This document shows positions 12,122-64,000 of a stretch of DNA of 64,000 nucleotides, piece after piece. A model generated the notes under the pieces. The model ran no database searches. It worked only from the letters and a program-made list of their open reading frames with translations, and had not been told where the DNA came from. The stretch is from Candidatus Latescibacterota bacterium (GTDB lineage: Bacteria; Latescibacterota; UBA2968; UBA8231). Position numbers and translations under genes: made by a program. How positions within the stretch are numbered: position 1 is the stretch's first letter; every line of letters begins with the position of its first letter. The DNA lies in assembly GCA_965242865.1 (NCBI GenBank), contig CBDETK010000013.1, forward strand, positions 3,136,001-3,200,000, read 5' to 3'.

Positions 12122-13177
12122 ATGTCCATCATCCCCACGCGCCCTTTGCGCACCGGCGTCGAGCTAAGCACCCTCGGCTTTGGCGGCGCGCCTTTGGGCG
12201 AGCTTTTCGATCCGGTCAGCGAAACCCAAGCTCAAGCCACCCTGCAAGCGGCTTGGGACGCCGGCATCCGCTACTACGACACCGCCCCGTTTTACGGCTA
12301 TGGCAAAAGCGAGCACCGCCTCGGCCACTTTCTCCGCCAGCAAGAGCGCGGCGACTTTGTGCTCTCGACCAAGGTCGGCCGGGTGCTCACCGCCACCCGC
12401 GACCTCAATGCTTTTGAGCAAGGCTTCTGGCTCGGCGGCCTGCCCTTTGACTTCCGCTTCGACTACGGGTACGACGGCATCATGCGCTCGTGGGAAGACA
12501 GCTTGCAGCGGCTGAGCCTCAGCTCCATTGACCTGCTGTTGATCCACGACCTCGACAGCTTCTTCCACGACAGCGAGCAACGCTTCTCCGCCCATCTCAA
12601 CCGCCTGATCACCAGCGGCTGGCGCGCCCTCGACGAGCTGCGCTCCCAAGGGCTGATCAAGGCCGTCGGCGCCGGGATCAACCGCATGGGGGCCATGCCG
12701 CGCCTGCTCGACGGGGTGGATCTGGACTTCTGCATCGTCGCCATGCCCTACACGCTCTTGGACCAAGCCTCCCTCGACGAGGAATTTCCGCTCTGCGCGG
12801 AGCGCGACGTGCGCATCGTCATCGGCGCGGTGTTCGCTTCCGGCATCCTCGCCTCCGGCCCGGTCGAGGGCGCTCGCTACGCGTACGACACGGCCTCGCC
12901 GGCAATCCTCGCAAAGACTCGCCGCATCCAAGCCGTCTGCGAGCGGCACGACGTGCCCTTGCCGGCCGCGGCCATGCAGTTCCCGCTCGGGCACCCCCTC
13001 GTCTCGGCCATCATCCCCGGCGCGCTCGTCCCAGCGCACATCGAGACCAACGCCGAGTGGTTTAAGCACCCCATACCCACCGATCTGTGGGCCGAGCTAA
13101 AGGCCGAAGGATTGGTGCGGGCAGACGCTCCGACGCCGTGCGGGAATGAGAATGACGAGGTTAAAAATGGCCCCTGA
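12122..13177 (+). CDS. Aldo/keto reductase (D-threo-aldose dehydrogenase-like)
   Basis: LGFGGAPLG, GIRYYDTAPFYGYGKSE, LSTKVGR, IDLLLIHD. Confidence 0.85.
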   Translation: MSIIPTRPLRTGVELSTLGFGGAPLGELFDPVSETQAQATLQAAWDAGIRYYDTAPFYGYGKSEHRLGHFLRQQERGDFVLSTKVGRVLTATRDLNAFEQGFWLGGLPFDFRFDYGYDGIMRSWEDSLQRLSLSSIDLLLIHDLDSFFHDSEQRFSAHLNRLITSGWRALDELRSQGLIKAVGAGINRMGAMPRLLDGVDLDFCIVAMPYTLLDQASLDEEFPLCAERDVRIVIGAVFASGILASGPVEGARYAYDTASPAILAKTRRIQAVCERHDVPLPAAAMQFPLGHPLVSAIIPGALVPAHIETNAEWFKHPIPTDLWAELKAEGLVRADAPTPCGNENDEVKNGP

Positions 13178-16100
13178 GCCTCCCAAAAAGAAGGTGTTTG
13201 ATCACATCCTCGGCGAACACTACACGGTCTTTGACGGGCTGGGCGGGATGCACGTGGAAGACATCTACCAAGACCGCAACGGTCTGCTCTGGATCGCCAC
13301 GGCCGACGGCGGCGTGAGTCGGTTCGACGGAGCGAACTTCGACACCTTTGGCCTGTCGAACGGGATGCCCCATCTCACGGTAATGACGATTGCCGAGGAC
13401 CAAGACGGGCGTCTGCTCTTCGGCACGCTGGGCGGCGGGCTGGCCATCTATGACGGGCAGGAGCTTCAGGTGCATACCACCGAGCACGGGCTGCCGTCCA
13501 ACGAGATTTTGAGCCTGCAACCCCAAGCCGATGGCTCGCTGCGGATGCTGACCGGCGCCGGGCTAGCCCAGTTCGCCGAGGGTAAGTGCGTGGAGCACAT
13601 GCCGGAAGTTGCGGGTCGGCCGCTCGGAGCGGTGTACGACATGGCGACCGACGCGGCCGGCACGACGTGGTTGGCGACGCGGGAGCGAGGGGTTATCAGC
13701 CTAGAGGGCCGCTCCCTGAGCGGAGACATGGGAAACAACTCGATTCAGTGGCCTTGGAAATTTGCCCAAGGCCCCTCCGGCCCGCTTTGGATCGCCTTTC
13801 ACCACACCGGCCCCGAACCCCTCGTAGGCCGCTACGATCCAAGCAGCCAACAACTCGAACTCATCGAGGTAGAAGACCACGCCGAGGGGGCCGAGGCCGT
13901 CCAGCACGGCACGCGGCACGTGCGCGTCGATGATAGAGGCTTGCTGTGGATGACCCGCCGGGGCGTCCTAGTGTACGACGGACAGGCTTGGCATCCCTTC
14001 TCCACCCAGTCGTCGGATAGCCACTTTTCGGATACGCGGCTGACGTACGAGGACCGCGAGGGGAACATCTGGTTGGGGCTGTGGGGCGGCGGGCTGGTTT
14101 TTTGCGATCCGCTCAGCGTCCAGCTATACACCCAAGCCGATGGCCTGCCCGACAGCGAGGTCCAGTGTCTGGGCGAAGATCGCGAAGGTCGGCTGTGGGT
14201 CGGTACGATGGGCGGCCTAGCCTGCCGCCAAGGCGACCGGATTCGCCCCGTAGGGCCAGAGCGGACGGTCTCAGCGCTGGTGGTAGATCGACAGGGGCAG
14301 GTCTGGAGCGGCGGGTCCGAAGGACAGGTCCTCAAGGCGACGGGCGGAGACGCCGAGGCGATTGAGGTGGCCGCGACGGTCCACACTGGAGAAGTCACCG
14401 GGCTGTGGGAAGACCGAGCAGGCCGCCTAAACGTCTGCACCGCCGAGGGGCGATTGGGGCGGATTGAACGAGATCGCTTTACGGCACTGGCACTAAAGGA
14501 GCAGTTTCCCCGCGATTGCACCGTCGCGCTGCAGGATGGAGCAGGCACCCTCTGGCTCGGCCTCAGCCGGAAAAAGGCCGCTATATGCTATTGCGAGGAC
14601 GGCCGTTTCCACACGCCTGCTGCGGCCGGCGTGGAAGACATCGCGGATGTGCGTGCTTTGTGCGAGTACCAAGGCGCACTCTGGATCGGGACGGAGAACC
14701 AGGGCCTGTTCGCCTTAGACTACGCTTCCGGGGCGATCCGCCGGTTTACGGTGGATCAGGGGGTGCTGTCCGTCAATGGGATCTCGGCTCTGATGAACGA
14801 TCCCCAAGGCAGCTTGTGGATTGGGACCAGCGGCGGGGGCGTACTGAGGTACGACGGCCAGAACTTCCATACCATTCGGCTGGGACAGGGCGCGTTGGAA
14901 AACATCGTCGAGGCCGTTGTGCGCGATAGCCGGGGCCGGCTGTGGTTTGGGACGCGCGCGGGTCTCATTGCGTATCGGCCCGGGGAGACGCGGCCGCGCA
15001 TCCTGCTGCGCCAAGTCGTGGCCGGGCAGACTTGGGACAAACCGCAAGCCGTGTCCTGCCCAGACAGCACGCCCGAGATTCAGTTTCACTTCCAAGGCAT
15101 CAGTTTCAGGAGCGGGGCCGGCCAGATGCGCTACAGCCACCGGCTCGTCGGCCACGGCCCGGCCGAAGAGTGGAGCGCCTTCTCGCCCGCCAACGAGGCG
15201 ACGTACCAAAACGTGCCGGCCGGCCAGTTCCACTTTGAGGTGCGGACCATGGATCGGGATGGCTTGGTGTCGGACATCGCCCGCCTAACGGTGCAAGTGG
15301 TCCCCACCCAATCTCGGCACCTAGAGCAAATGCTGCGGGCCGCACATCAGGGGTTTATCAGCCAAAGTCCGGCCATCGCCGAGCTTCTCGGTAAGCTCGA
15401 CTTAATAGCCGAGACGAATATGGCGGTGCTGGTGTTGGGCGAGACCGGGGTCGGCAAGGGGGTGTTGGCGCGGTTTATCCACCACCTTAGTCCGCGCCGA
15501 GCGAAGCCCTTTATATATGTCAACTGCGGGAACCTGCCCGCCGGGCTGGTAGAAAGCGAACTGTTCGGCCACGAGAAGGGGGCCTTTACCAGCGCCCATG
15601 CCCAAAGAATCGGCTACTTTGAACGAGCGAATGGCGGAACCTTGTTCCTCGACGAAGTGGGCGATTTACGCTTCGAGTCCCAACGGGTCTTGCTCCACAT
15701 CTTGGAGGAGAAACACCTGACGCGCGTCGGCGGCGGGAAGGAGATCCCGGTCGATGTGCGGATCGTTGCTGCGACCAACAGGGACCTAAAAGAGGACATT
15801 CGGGCGGGAACGTTCCGGGGGGATCTGCTCCATCGGCTGAACGAATTCTCAGCCGAACTGCCGCCCCTGCGGGAGCGTCGGGAGGATATCTCGCTCTTGG
15901 CGGTGCATTTTGCGAAAGAGTGGGCCCAAGAGGAAAGGCGGTCGGTGCCGCCTCTAAGCGACGAAGTGCTCGCGCACTTGGAGGGATATCCTTGGCCGGG
16001 GAACGTGCGTGAATTGGAGCATGTGATCAAGCAGGTGATGGTACTGAGCCGTGGGGATGTCATTCAGGTGGAGGATCTGCCGCAGCCAGCGGCCCTCTCT

Positions 16101-63239: not shown

Positions 63240-63268
63240 ACGACCAAAGTTATCACTGGAGGCAAACT

Positions 63269-64000
63269 ATGCGCGGCTTGTTTTTTGCGATTGGCTTATT
63301 GACCGCTCCGGTTGGAGCCTTGGCCTTAACGTGGGATTTTGACGAGGGCACCACGTGGGGCTGGACCGCCCAAGAGAGCTACTTAGGCGATGACGACAGA
63401 GATCCCACCACGGTGTACAGCGAAGTCGAAGACGGCGTCTGGCGCATTGCGCCGGTGCCGGACGGACAACGACCGGCCATTACGTTGTACTCGCCGCCGA
63501 TTGGGGAAGACTCGGCCCTATTCGACTATGTCACCCTCCGGCTCCGCATCCTCCATGATAGCCCCACCGGGGGGAATCTCTTTATGGACTGGTTCAATGC
63601 CGAGTACAAAAGACTCCGGGAGGAAAGAAGACTCAAACAGGCAGCGGGCCAACGCATACCAAGCTACGGGTCGAAGTTTTCGATGGGCCGTTATCAAATC
63701 TATCCCACCCAATGGGAAGACATCACGATAGATATACGCGCCTTAGAAGCCGCTGCGGAAGCGAATCCAGAAGTCGCGATCGTCTGGCAGGACACCCTTT
63801 TTGAGTTTTATTTTGACTTGGCTCTAAACACCGCCGCGCAGGGGCCGGCCGATCATCCGTCCTTTGTCGAAGTAGATTGGATTCAACTGACCGGGGTCGA
63901 AGAGTTGCTCTTGGGGGAATTGCCGCCCCGGAGGATCGCCGCGCCGGCTGGGTCGCCCGGCGCGTTGTTCGCCGCGCCCAACTTCTCCCCCCTCGGCGAA
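63269..64000 (+). CDS. CBM-like/FG-GAP protein, paralog 15 (3' partial)
   Basis: MRGLFFAIGLLTAPVGALALTWDFDEGTTWGWTAQE, open to the window end and missing from the ORF track. Confidence 0.8.
   Translation, partial: MRGLFFAIGLLTAPVGALALTWDFDEGTTWGWTAQESYLGDDDRDPTTVYSEVEDGVWRIAPVPDGQRPAITLYSPPIGEDSALFDYVTLRLRILHDSPTGGNLFMDWFNAEYKRLREERRLKQAAGQRIPSYGSKFSMGRYQIYPTQWEDITIDIRALEAAAEANPEVAIVWQDTLFEFYFDLALNTAAQGPADHPSFVEVDWIQLTGVEELLLGELPPRRIAAPAGSPGALFAAPNFSPLGE

Follow-up and report, generated by a model that had tools for sequence, protein, structure and literature searches.

A sigma54-associated Latescibacterota locus pairing predicted disulfide-rich small proteins with integrin-alpha-like propellers of the T9SS type

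Relation to described systems

The prepilin/prepilin-peptidase pairs of type IV filaments (T4P, T2SS, Tad and archaeal class III) share with the locus described here an A24 aspartyl protease in which the two catalytic Asp motifs are present, substrates whose hydrophilic leader has Gly as its last residue before a hydrophobic helix, and the adjacency of enzyme and substrate genes. However, most genomes carrying our locus lack the assembly ATPase and platform protein, and its putative substrates are devoid of Glu5, have a second, AxA-type site and Cys-rich cores and in some cases end in a T9SS sorting domain, whereas the protease is longer by ~250 conserved residues. Glycocin clusters of the sublancin type also encode a leader-bearing disulfide peptide, thiol-disulfide oxidoreductases and a GT2 glycosyltransferase, as does this locus, but rely on a C39-ABC exporter that is missing here; the Sec-type leader, a protease of another class and the propellers are further differences. 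The propellers find their best Foldseek matches in CRTAC1 (E 1.5e-10) and integrin alpha-V heads (~1e-8), with which they have in common the fold, the Pfam family FG-GAP_3 and a predicted top-face ligand; they differ in being bacterial, in lacking a beta subunit, in their T9SS C-terminal domain (CTD), in an N-terminal CBM-like domain predicted to close the cleft and in forming tandem arrays, with more than 30 paralogues per genome. Like T9SS type A cargo, they combine a Sec signal with a C-terminal TIGR04183 domain in a genome encoding SprA, but their genetic pairing with small, CTD-less predicted binders is a case not found reported in the literature searched.

Extracytosolic FMN-binding proteins flavinylated by ApbE, as presented in excerpts of PMC8238504, resemble one product of the locus in their membrane-anchored FMN_bind-like domain, [S/T]GA[S/T] motif and thioredoxin-like neighbours, ApbE being also encoded in this genome and adjacent in a related locus (G095). 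An invariant CxxC inside the domain sets our protein apart, and a link to A24 proteases and Cys-rich precursors is not among the clusters described in those excerpts. Finally, the heat-stable enterotoxin STII is, according to the excerpted account in PMC5985334, a small ribosomal peptide delivered by Sec, folded by the Dsb system (DsbA) in the periplasm and exported by MacAB-TolC. Sec export, periplasmic oxidation and outer-membrane crossing would be common to both routes, and a MacB_PCD/FtsX permease follows relatives of our module in other families; the locus differs from that account of STII in its dedicated thioredoxins and flavin protein instead of housekeeping Dsb, in an added intramembrane aspartyl protease and in the T9SS propeller that replaces the pump in the genus. 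The original prediction had not recognised this combination as a described system, and no published description of the protease/precursor/propeller system was found in the literature searched. We read it as a sigma54/EBP-switched secretion locus in which disulfide-rich small proteins are paired with T9SS-secreted, integrin-alpha-like propellers holding them in a fast-evolving cleft, an interpretation that we consider about evenly poised between right and wrong.

Promoters and peptide maturation genes

The window (the whole 64-kb stretch of DNA that was analysed) holds the predicted gene inventory gene for gene and in place, all on the plus strand, and the array extends ~5 kb beyond its end with two further propellers and a fourth DUF4159 gene. 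The single sigma54 enhancer-binding protein (EBP) expected there is encoded at 13146-16358 (Pfam Sigma54_activat 8e-62, Reg_prop 5.7e-37, AAA_lid_14, HTH_8, Y_Y_Y); it has an N-terminal Reg_prop/Y_Y_Y sensor, no TM segment and a paralogue with 54% identity in a second, paralogous locus of the same genome (locus 2). Likewise, the three matching sigma54 promoter modules are present, with identical -24/-12 elements, TGGCACGAAACTTGC, starting at 16575, 36366 and 49349. Allowing at most one mismatch, the -24/-12 pattern matches 15 times against 5.29 expected, and none of 100 shuffles reached 15. An alignable module of three upstream repeats and a hairpin surrounds each element: module 1 (16380-16589) comprises three TTGCAC-N6-TTTTGC-type repeats, a hairpin with a T-run and the element at 16575-16589; in modules 2 (36160-36380) and 3 (49145-49363) the hairpins lie at 36317-36342 and 49300-49325 and the elements at 36366-36380 and 49349-49363. 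The EBP would bind the three repeats and thereby fire the sigma54 promoters that precede the maturation operon and two cassettes.

As predicted, an A24 peptidase, an FMN/CxxC protein and two redoxins occupy 16636-19672, directly upstream of the first precursor gene. The first of these genes encodes a long A24-family (GxGD-type) aspartyl membrane protease of 379 aa (16636-17775; PF01478 27.1 bits, cut-off 26.5, and 30.7 bits in a second PF01478 search). No other A24 match occurs in the genome. The protease has a conserved extension of ~250 aa and both Asp motifs, D33 and D93 (GDAKL) being invariant in 12 of 12 homologues. The membrane-anchored FMN-binding-domain protein (17739-18404, with a likely start at 17778) matches FMN_bind below the Pfam cut-off (E 0.0054) and an RnfG-like family at E 2e-4; it has a CxxC invariant in 20/20 homologues and an SGAT flavinylation-type motif, DGI[ST]GAT in 18/20, and the ApbE gene of the genome has a counterpart that adjoins the homologue in G095. 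Two TlpA/ResA-like thioredoxins with an N-terminal TM segment follow, one with CSAC (18350-18940; AhpC-TSA 7.3e-10, Redoxin, ResA subfamily 2.9e-11) and one with CPYC (18956-19672; AhpC-TSA 3.1e-18, Redoxin 4.5e-15). These membrane-anchored thioredoxins may form or shuffle disulfides together with the FMN-binding CxxC protein, probably flavinylated by ApbE.

Five constant-leader, variable-core genes, each followed by propellers, had been described in the window; the five leader genes and the propellers after them are there, but the cores are moderately conserved 4-6-Cys mini-domains, and hypervariable cores occur instead in locus 2. They are pre1 (115 aa, 6-Cys core; 19669-20016), pre2 (111 aa; 36511-36846), pre3 (109 aa, 4-Cys core; 49496-49825), pre4 (232 aa; 53627-54325; FlgD_ig 2.9e-14) and pre5 (290 aa, two core modules; 58041-58913; FlgD_ig 1.1e-13, TIGR04183 39.7 bits against a cut-off of 23), the last two ending in the T9SS CTD common to the propellers. 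Their leader consists of a cytoplasmic motif, S-x-S-G-x-V-x-P-R-x-G↓L-x-L-G-W, where conservation within the family is highest, ~19 hydrophobic residues and an AxA site. Judged from sequence, it would be a hybrid, the G↓L site being class-III-like and the AxA site class-I-like. The boundary between constant and variable parts coincides with this signal-peptidase-I-type AxA site, and at the nucleotide level the identity of the seven locus-2 genes to each other is 0.89-0.97 between -80 and +130 and 0.27-0.47 thereafter. Precursors would thus insert into the membrane N-in, be cut at G↓L by the dedicated A24 protease and be released at AxA by signal peptidase I as small disulfide-rich products (~50-aa cores with 4-10 Cys). 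It counts against this scheme that a signal peptidase I cut at AxA would make the A24 cut dispensable.

The leader invites comparison with type IV pilins, and a mini-pilin fibre bearing interchangeable propeller adhesins was one option of the original prediction. With the type IV pilin definition given in excerpts of PMC4471445, the Gly-terminated leader followed by ~19 hydrophobic residues and its link to an enzyme of the prepilin-peptidase family speak for such a fibre, but the precursors have no Glu5, their constant part gives way to the variable one at the AxA site and CTD-bearing forms exist. Moreover, a pilus-type ATPase (T2SSE match at 1e-10) is absent from 14 of the 18 protease-bearing genomes of the genus, ten of the 14 being assemblies of 1-3 contigs. 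The T2SSE/T2SSF genes of this genome are confined to a classical T2SS cluster on a small contig, a cluster found in no other genome of the genus, where the best T2SSE matches reach 86-104 bits against 457. We therefore regard the fibre as highly improbable and drop the mini-pilin option.

Propellers, accessory genes and recurrence

All 15 predicted propeller paralogues are in the window, 13 complete with the C-terminal sorting domain, one divergent and one cut by the window end. Propellers 1-5 (20151-22259, 22289-24403, 24433-26544, 26574-28718 and 28789-30924), with Sec signal, CBM-like domain, FG-GAP propeller and T9SS CTD, follow pre1; propellers 6-9 (36957-39086, 39117-41267, 41294-43420 and 43440-45560) follow pre2; and propellers 11 (50021-52144), 12 (54411-56543) and 13-15 (58933-61086, 61116-63239 and 63269 to the window end) follow pre3, pre4 and pre5, respectively. 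Propeller 10 (46133-48160) lacks a CTD, is 31% identical to propeller 1 and matches only FG-GAP_3 (3.7e-18). Domain searches detected no enzymatic or toxic domain in the propellers. The CTD (39 bits, cut-off 23) and SprA in the genome (482 bits) point to a T9SS; searches for GldM and PorP gave no match, the controls for both being silent too. By virtue of its CTD the propeller would reach the cell surface via SprA, perhaps with the peptide still bound, and pre4 and pre5 could be exported by their own CTDs.

The three DUF4159 genes and two glycosyltransferases expected among the propellers were also found. DUF4159 protein 1 (31025-32356; 7.7e-18) has a TM anchor and a Pro/Arg-rich linker, copy 2 (52245-53567) is 92% identical to it and copy 3 lies at 56644-57981. 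A 62-aa CTD remnant (32375-32563), a recombination scar, precedes a macrolide-GT-like GT1 fused to a transglutaminase-like domain (32573-35065; Transglut_core 4e-16, EryCIII-like_C, MGT subfamily 3.1e-18) and a GT2 (35067-36131; Glycos_transf_2 1.3e-24), and TPR gene fragments (45592-46208) and a TPR protein (48205-49137; TPR_12 3.7e-35) lie further downstream. These genes could suggest a glycocin- or RiPP-like pathway in which the leader docks a cytoplasmic TPR protein and glycosyltransferases that modify the core before export, the A24 protease acting as leader peptidase. Conservation of the TPR (orthologues 82-86% identical in G001 and G009), GT1-transglutaminase and GT2 genes in the cluster in two subtypes, a GT4 gene upstream of the module in G121, the partial match of the GT2 to MftF (E 8.5e-33, below the MftF cut-off) and the marked conservation of the cytoplasmic leader part would fit. 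Against it, neither a RiPP recognition element nor a C39 peptidase/ABC exporter, radical-SAM or cyclase gene was found, the G095 module has no glycosyltransferase, and RiPP leaders do not usually combine a Sec-type hydrophobic stretch with an AxA site; we find this pathway very unlikely.

The original prediction had proposed co-occurrence across genomes as a check; it was run, and every A24-bearing genome searched has a precursor. Among 168 genomes of the phylum, 32 have both the long protease and the precursor, 5 have a precursor without the protease, no genome shows the reverse and 131 have neither; of the 49 genera, the same 7 account for the matches to both. Within the genus (G000-G024) the corresponding counts are 15, 2, 0 and 8. 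That leader proteins are kept without the protease in G023 and G012 counts against the proposed scheme. Outside the genus, 13 of the 28 places with a protease have a listed precursor less than 500 nt further down the same strand. This co-occurrence and adjacency strongly support an enzyme-substrate link. The EBP, precursor, propeller, FMN-binding, A24, both thioredoxin, TPR, GT1-transglutaminase, GT2 and DUF4159 genes occur all together in G001 and G009, with an A24 protease only ~40% identical, and the core module (FMN-binding CxxC protein, two thioredoxins, A24 and precursor) recurs in three families of the class (G121, G095 and G088). The locus is thus a conserved system and not a chance neighbourhood.

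In other families of the class, a MacB_PCD/FtsX permease takes the place of the propellers behind the peptide-maturation core, and propeller arrays without peptide or protease exist in G010, G011 and G045; peptide module and propellers are therefore separable. The disulfide-rich peptide might then be the sole product, bacteriocin-like, toxin-like or signalling, matured by the A24, thioredoxin and FMN proteins, with the propellers as unrelated, co-regulated T9SS adhesins or lectins and their predicted binding a false positive. The excess of propellers over peptides (16 propellers and 5 peptides in locus 1, 15 and 7 in locus 2), which weighs against the paired reading, would agree with it, as would the export of periplasmic STII by MacAB-TolC described in excerpts of PMC5985334. 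Nonetheless, the cluster has no MacB gene, the nearest lying ~4 kb beyond its end on the other strand, a propeller directly follows all 12 precursors of the two loci of the genome and likewise the precursor in 36 pairs across genomes, and the complex score and the evolution of the docking site described below argue for binding. We consider a peptide-only product unlikely.

Predicted complex and evolution of the propeller cleft

Returning to the paired secretion of peptide and propeller, the pre1 core was modelled in the cleft of its neighbouring propeller with ipSAE values of 0.83, 0.88 and 0.89, the best control giving 0.00 (one cognate pair); 58 of 80 solved complexes attain the complex-score mark, compared with 2 of 110 mismatched pairs. 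Agreement between the runs extends to at least 84% of their contacts, with partner pLDDT of at least 83. For that one cognate pair, the modelled score of 0.88 lends support to the peptide ligand/receptor option of the original prediction. The folded core would dock between the CBM-like domain and the propeller top face, where integrin-type propellers bind ligands, burying nearly the whole core (residues 68-76, 79-86, 88, 94-97, 99 and 101-115; 84-125 contacts) against loops with low pLDDT in the propeller monomer model. Such burial at a ligand site, with loops disordered in the monomer, is what would be seen if the peptide were a periplasmic plug, an inhibitor or chaperone masking the cleft until export in the manner of an immunity protein or of a pro-peptide in trans. 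Yet the propellers have no detected enzymatic or toxic domain, some arrays lack the peptide altogether and the export tags of pre4 and pre5 would be superfluous for a periplasmic plug, which makes such a role rather improbable.

The preferred reading, in which the propeller holds the peptide in its cleft, is also favoured by the variability of that cleft. The 50 interface positions have an entropy of 1.91 against 0.74 bits (p 8e-16), and the interface holds 25 of the 59 propeller positions that vary most, where 5 would be expected. Some of the entropy contrast would arise with no ligand at all, since in every protein family exposed loops are more variable than the core. The 32%-identical type-2 paralogue set repeats the pattern (1.86 against 0.92, p 5e-10; 23 of 59 in the interface), and in 10 of 10 pairs dN/dS is higher for the interface (0.58-2.60) than for the protein body (0.27-0.83). 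From these sequence comparisons, the predicted contact surface evolves fast, and diversification of the cleft under selection would yield a range of peptide/propeller surfaces whose binding targets are most likely host, kin or prey. Of the extracellular recognition system originally proposed, the coherent, recurring multi-gene system and the fast-evolving contact surface stand, and recognition itself is what we infer from them.

Divergence of cores and interfaces is correlated among the 36 precursor/propeller pairs given the rest of the protein (partial Mantel r 0.37, p 2e-4), a pattern that duplication of whole cassettes may explain; for the type-2 subset, partial correlation is 0.35 for non-interface and 0.26 for interface positions. 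It also counts against the preferred reading that propellers of one operon have only 42-66% of their interface residues in common.

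Architecture and putative sigma54 control of the locus

All genes assigned to the system run on the plus strand from position 13146 to the end of the window, starting with the gene of a sigma54 enhancer-binding protein (EBP; 13146-16358) that carries Reg_prop, Y_Y_Y, Sigma54_activat (8e-62) and HTH_8 domains. A first sigma54 module on the same strand separates the EBP from the genes of a 379-aa A24-family protease (16636-17775), a membrane-anchored CxxC protein with an FMN_bind-like end (17739-18404), the TlpA/ResA-like thioredoxins Trx1 (18350-18940) and Trx2 (18956-19672) and pre1 (19669-20016), the first of five leader-bearing, Cys-rich precursors. 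Behind pre1 come five CBM-like/FG-GAP paralogues (hereafter propellers), DUF4159, a fusion of GT1 with a transglutaminase-like domain, and a GT2. The second module precedes pre2, four propellers, TPR fragments, a divergent propeller lacking the sorting domain and a TPR gene, and the third is followed by pre3, a propeller and DUF4159, then by pre4, a propeller and DUF4159, and finally by pre5 and three propellers, the last of them truncated by the window end. The array continues for ~5 kb more, with two propellers and a fourth DUF4159, and unrelated genes (GH99-like, PhyH) lie downstream of its end. The 300-nt stretch coding for the sorting domain is found in 15 copies of 84-94% identity, and the genome as a whole holds 33 propeller and 13 precursor matches. 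This gene order and the three identical -24/-12 elements confirm in the sequence what the original prediction had observed, i.e. an EBP, sigma54 modules, an A24 protease, an FMN/CxxC protein, redoxins, precursors, propellers, DUF4159 proteins and glycosyltransferases, and the anatomy of the locus rests on tool results. The five leader-bearing genes it had counted are all present, pre4 and pre5 being longer and carrying the sorting domain of the propellers at their end; of the constant leader and variable core that it had described, the leader is indeed conserved, but the cores in the window form a moderately conserved Cys mini-domain.

The -24/-12 element, TGGCACGAAACTTGC, occurs in three identical copies at 16575, 36366 and 49349, and matches to the pattern with at most one mismatch number 15 versus 5.29 expected, a count reached by none of 100 shuffles. 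The modules around the elements can be aligned with one another, and each comprises three upstream repeats and, immediately ahead of the promoter, an 11-bp hairpin plus T-run. The EBP combines an AAA+ sigma54-interaction domain and a DNA-binding HTH with these -24/-12 promoters and their upstream repeats. The hairpins, placed between the upstream repeats and the -24 box at 16526-16551 (a position deduced from the alignment offset), 36317-36342 and 49300-49325, are also present in a paralogous locus of the same genome (locus 2), and together with the T-run they could insulate each cassette from read-through. The long 5' leaders of pre2 (36381-36510) and pre3 (49364-49495) include copies of the 3' end of Trx2 (tblastn, Trx2 residues 192-238), which argues that these cassettes originated when the Trx2-pre1 junction was copied to a place behind a new promoter module. 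Locus 2 uses five copies of another -24/-12 variant, TGGCACGCAATTTGCT, with an upstream repeat that differs from that of the window. Since each locus has its own promoter variant and its own upstream repeat, the two EBPs look like orthogonal switches.

Precursors, protease and redox proteins

All members of the precursor family share the leader motif S-x-S-G-x-V-x-P-R-x-G-L-x-L-G-W, behind which follow a hydrophobic stretch of ~19 residues, a small-x-Ala site and the Cys-rich core. The family is rare, a profile search of 1.84 billion proteins retrieving 69 representative clusters at E <= 0.001 and 22 at 1e-10 or better; for pre1 the ESM Atlas gave only sub-0.9 leads to unnamed clusters of ~90 aa. 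The protease passes PF01478 marginally (27.1 bits for a cut-off of 26.5; 30.7 bits in the genome scan). In the A24 family the second catalytic Asp lies in a G-x-G-D-type motif; here, the catalytic D33 (YTD) and D93 (PGDAKL) are invariant in 12/12 homologues, down to 38% identity, which also share a conserved extra part of ~250 aa. Its structural model is poor (pLDDT 64.7, pTM 0.47) and had no Foldseek match at E <= 0.001, and a PDB sequence search yielded nothing at E <= 1 for either this protease or the FMN protein. It is the sole A24 gene of the genome, and within the genus a classical A24 is found only in G016. In another genome (G132, L051:8771-14914) one long A24 copy lies among five paralogous secreted proteins of 311-319 aa that belong to no known family and have ordinary signal peptides, with two proteins bearing the T9SS C-terminal sorting domain nearby; these paralogues are possibly a different substrate set for the long A24.

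The co-occurrence of protease and precursor across genomes, which had been suggested as a check, proved close to perfect. Both were found in 15 of the 25 genomes searched (G000-G024), with the precursor alone in two, the protease alone in none and neither in eight, and in 32 of 168 genomes of the phylum, with five precursor-only, no protease-only and 131 empty genomes, although such counts overstate independence because the genomes are kin. In the phylum set the two genes match in the same 7 of 49 genera, from three families, and the pairing holds also in lineages whose protease is less than 30% identical (BLASTP). Outside the genus a precursor lies at most 500 nt downstream on the same strand at at least 13 of the 28 protease places among the matches listed, a lower bound with 11 precursor matches not among them. 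The protease-precursor link stands on these co-occurrence and adjacency results. In G023 and G012, the two protease-less genomes whose loci were examined, every leader protein of these loci is long and carries a sorting domain of its own, and in G023 the G|L motif, the putative class-III-like cut site of the leader, is disturbed; the two genomes fit a protease required chiefly by the short precursor forms that lack the tag. The role of the enzyme is the least settled point, because the signal-peptidase-I-type AxA site alone would release the core. If both cleavages take place, as we infer, the protease might cut first so that the AxA site can be presented by the long hydrophobic stretch, might clear the leader remnant or might free the conserved cytoplasmic piece of the leader as a signal.

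A mini-pilin was among the options of the original prediction. By definition, a type IV filament depends on a prepilin peptidase, a traffic ATPase and a platform protein in addition to subunits whose signal peptides are of class III (PMC4471445). The precursor leaders, of 20-36 aa, do have the Gly and the hydrophobic tract of ~19 residues, with Trp, not Glu, at position 5. In a scan that scored up to 44 first-look candidates per genome, the traffic ATPase (T2SSE at 1e-10) was matched in only 8 of 31 genomes of the genus and in none of 14 of the 18 with the protease, 10 of these 14 being assemblies of one to three contigs. The sole T2SSE match of our genome is on a small contig (C1), as are its sole T2SSF matches (C1:27932-28906, inside a classical T2SS cluster), and the genome search found no platform protein linked to the locus of the window. 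We therefore reject the type IV filament, and with it the mini-pilin, on the mostly absent ATPase, the unlinked platform and the missing Glu5. The cluster on C1 (26051-36586) is a complete classical T2SS with GspE, GspF, four pseudopilin-like genes and secretin, its pseudopilins being ordinary. This 41-kb contig has 63.7% GC versus 60.6% in the main contig, and a T2SSE match as strong occurs in no other genome of the genus; C1 may be a contaminant or have been acquired recently and, if it is genuine, the protease of the window might serve its T2SS too.

The CxxC protein scores 17.8 bits against PF04205, below the cut-off of 22, and its putative FMN_bind homology is argued from motif and context. 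A CxxC beside a flavin recalls sulfhydryl oxidases. Among 20 homologues the CxxC is kept in all and DGI[ST]GAT in 18, [S/T]GA[S/T] being given as the ApbE acceptor motif in a published study (PMC8238504). ApbE itself is encoded in the genome (275 bits) and directly adjoins the FMN-protein homologue in G095, a member of another family of the class. Together with the two membrane-anchored thioredoxins, the FMN protein looks like a dedicated disulfide relay that would serve the Cys-rich cores. In the corresponding module of G121 a Mutator-family transposase gene (L049:8114-9433) splits the Trx2 gene.

Propellers, their predicted export and the variable cleft

Each propeller has a Sec signal, an N-domain of ~200 aa, FG-GAP repeats (FG-GAP_3, 5e-19 to 1.4e-23) and a C-terminal domain that passes the sorting-domain model TIGR04183 (39.0 bits in propeller 1 and 39.7 bits in pre5, cut-off 23). 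The genome encodes SprA above the cut-off (TIGR04189, 481.9 bits), and scans for GldM and PorP/SprF gave no match in it nor in any control genome. The AlphaFold model of the propeller (pLDDT 77.6, pTM 0.73) retrieved CRTAC1 (E 1.5e-10) and integrin alpha-V heads (~1e-8) with Foldseek, at a TM of just 0.33-0.42 over the multi-domain chain, as well as CBM-plus-propeller enzymes such as galactose oxidase and sialidases. The ESM Atlas leads for the N-domain point to CBM-like families, all sub-0.9, and a PDB profile search with the propeller alignment returned only weak FG-GAP and FlgD matches. The propeller family is wider than the peptide system, being present in 26 of 31 genomes of the genus; in G010, G011 and G045 propeller arrays lie beside housekeeping genes without peptide or protease. 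Inside two of these peptide-less arrays a protein of ~700 aa was noted, which ends in a Redoxin domain in G011 (L061:12901-14967) and has its counterpart in G010 (L059:10909-13035).

Binding was modelled for one pair, propeller 1 (residues 21-610) and the core (residues 62-115) of pre1, which lies next to it upstream. The complex scored 0.83, 0.88 and 0.89, the best of three controls reaching 0.00; the score mark is attained by 58 of the 80 solved complexes and by 2 of the 110 mismatched pairs, a calibration that holds only roughly here because custom alignments were used. The runs share at least 84% of contacts with a partner pLDDT of at least 83, which supports rather than shows that the pre1 core binds propeller 1. 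In the model the core would sit between the N-domain (39-48, 104-108, 126-137, 176-179) and loops of the propeller top face, with the interface loops 40-48, 122-129 and 473-475 being low-confidence segments of the monomer model.

The 50 interface positions have a mean column entropy of 1.91 versus 0.74 bits across the 15 paralogues of the window's locus (Mann-Whitney p 8e-16). They include 25 of the 59 most variable positions, 5 being expected, and 48 of the 59 lie within two residues of the interface. The homologous positions of 15 paralogues of a second, ~32%-identical propeller type (type 2) behave alike (1.86 versus 0.92 bits, p 5e-10, 23/59 in the interface). Paralogues are 14-74% identical in the interface versus 62-91% overall, and Nei-Gojobori dN/dS ranges over 0.58-2.60 in the interface, compared with 0.27-0.83 for the body and 0.10-0.35 for the sorting domain, with interface values above 1 in five of 10 close pairs and above those of the body in 10/10. 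This variability is evidence independent of the complex model, and the diversifying cleft is a result of the analyses themselves. Across 36 pairs of precursor and next propeller from 12 genomes, core distance correlates with distance in the interface (r 0.72) and outside it (r 0.67), and core and interface have a partial correlation of 0.37 (p 2e-4); among the type-2 pairs alone, the partial value is higher outside the interface (0.35) than within it (0.26). Cassettes clearly co-diverge, as supported by the Mantel tests, which do not separate co-evolution from co-inheritance, and co-evolution of core and interface beyond co-inheritance is only suggested. One-to-one pairing is argued against by propellers outnumbering peptides, by a cleft that differs strongly among propellers of one operon and by the peptide-less arrays.

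Other copies, relatives and reading of the system

The window sits on a 5.6-Mb contig (C13) of a 6.0-Mb assembly. Locus 2 lies on the minus strand of this contig (C13:367162-410877), with its own EBP (54% identical), seven precursors, 13 propellers ~32% identical to those of the window, DUF4159, TPR, GT1 with transglutaminase, GT2 and a copy of the FMN protein; the protease and the thioredoxins are absent from it. The FMN-protein copy (L003:349-939, i.e. C13:384349-384939, minus) keeps the CxxC and has a different C-terminus without SGAT, and judging from its sequence it has probably decayed, which would leave locus 2 dependent on the operon of the window. Lacking protease, thioredoxins and SGAT in locus 2, the genome has its only intact maturation operon in the window. 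The seven precursor genes of locus 2 are 0.89-0.97 identical in nucleotides from 80 nt upstream to codon 44 and 0.27-0.47 thereafter, the break falling exactly behind the AxA motif; their cores contain 6-10 Cys in several frameworks, each conserved between species. An orphan precursor gene far from the other loci (C13:2271170-2271463, minus) has a leader of the locus-2 type and a degenerate promoter (TGGTAC for TGGCAC).

In G121 and G095, from other families of the class, a MacB_PCD/FtsX permease comes behind the core module. MacB pumps expel the Sec-delivered, Dsb-folded peptide STII from the periplasm (PMC5985334). Since the module recurs with this permease in other families, the peptide module looks like the older unit, and it appears that the outer-membrane step was swapped, with propellers taking the place of the permease in this genus. 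Glycosyltransferases are present in the window, where neither a C39/ABC exporter of the RiPP/glycocin type nor any Rfam family at gathering score was found.

No RNA sample was listed as containing 16300-22300, which is neutral with regard to expression. Logan contigs from four runs gave depth in all 30 bins, and X1 and X3 agree fully over the unique stretches 16560-19588 and 32449-36221. These contigs cannot confirm the order of the paralogues because they are short in the repeats (248-1064 nt); an assembly artefact is argued against by the differences of 9-38% among propeller paralogues at the protein level and by comparable arrays in single-contig genomes of other species.

It is tempting to speculate, as a tentative reading that we hold to be rather doubtful, on a new surface-recognition machinery whose two-part binders would consist of an integrin-like propeller and a disulfide-rich mini-protein in its cleft. 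An orphan intramembrane aspartyl protease would act on a leader with two sites, one of class III and one of class I, a flavin-thioredoxin relay would form the disulfides and the binder would reach the surface, both parts jointly bound and exported, on the T9SS tag of the propeller. The repertoire would grow as genes duplicate in tandem, leaders are homogenised and the interface comes under positive selection; orthogonal EBP/promoter pairs would switch it on, and host, kin or prey would be its targets. Each part comes from a known family, and the assembled system does not fit any described kind: no published description of the combination was found in the literature searched, where the supplementary tables of PMC8238504 may list FMN-binding/thioredoxin clusters, and NCBIfam lacks models that would cover the protease subfamily, the precursor or the DUF4159 proteins found here. 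If the reading is true, a protease of the prepilin-peptidase family gains a role outside pilus-type filaments in bacteria, an additional flavin-linked route leads to disulfides outside the cytoplasm and the propellers provide the first example of a T9SS cargo family with small, genetically paired partners. With its constant leaders, its swapped cores and the raised dN/dS of its contact surface, the locus, from a lineage that is uncultured, evolves in a receptor-like manner; homologues are named by the sources from Gemmatimonadota and Candidatus Latescibacterota MAGs. The small parts are testable in E. coli or in a T9SS model, and the cores would form a new reservoir of natural disulfide-rich scaffolds that come with matched, predicted binders.

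Upstream of the locus, the window holds defence-type genes (2-4322), including a Type ISP restriction-modification enzyme truncated by the window start (Type_ISP_C, 3.2e-90), a Uma2-family endonuclease and a DUF433 protein, and two ORFs of ~400 aa without Pfam match (7653-8873 and 8926-10107).
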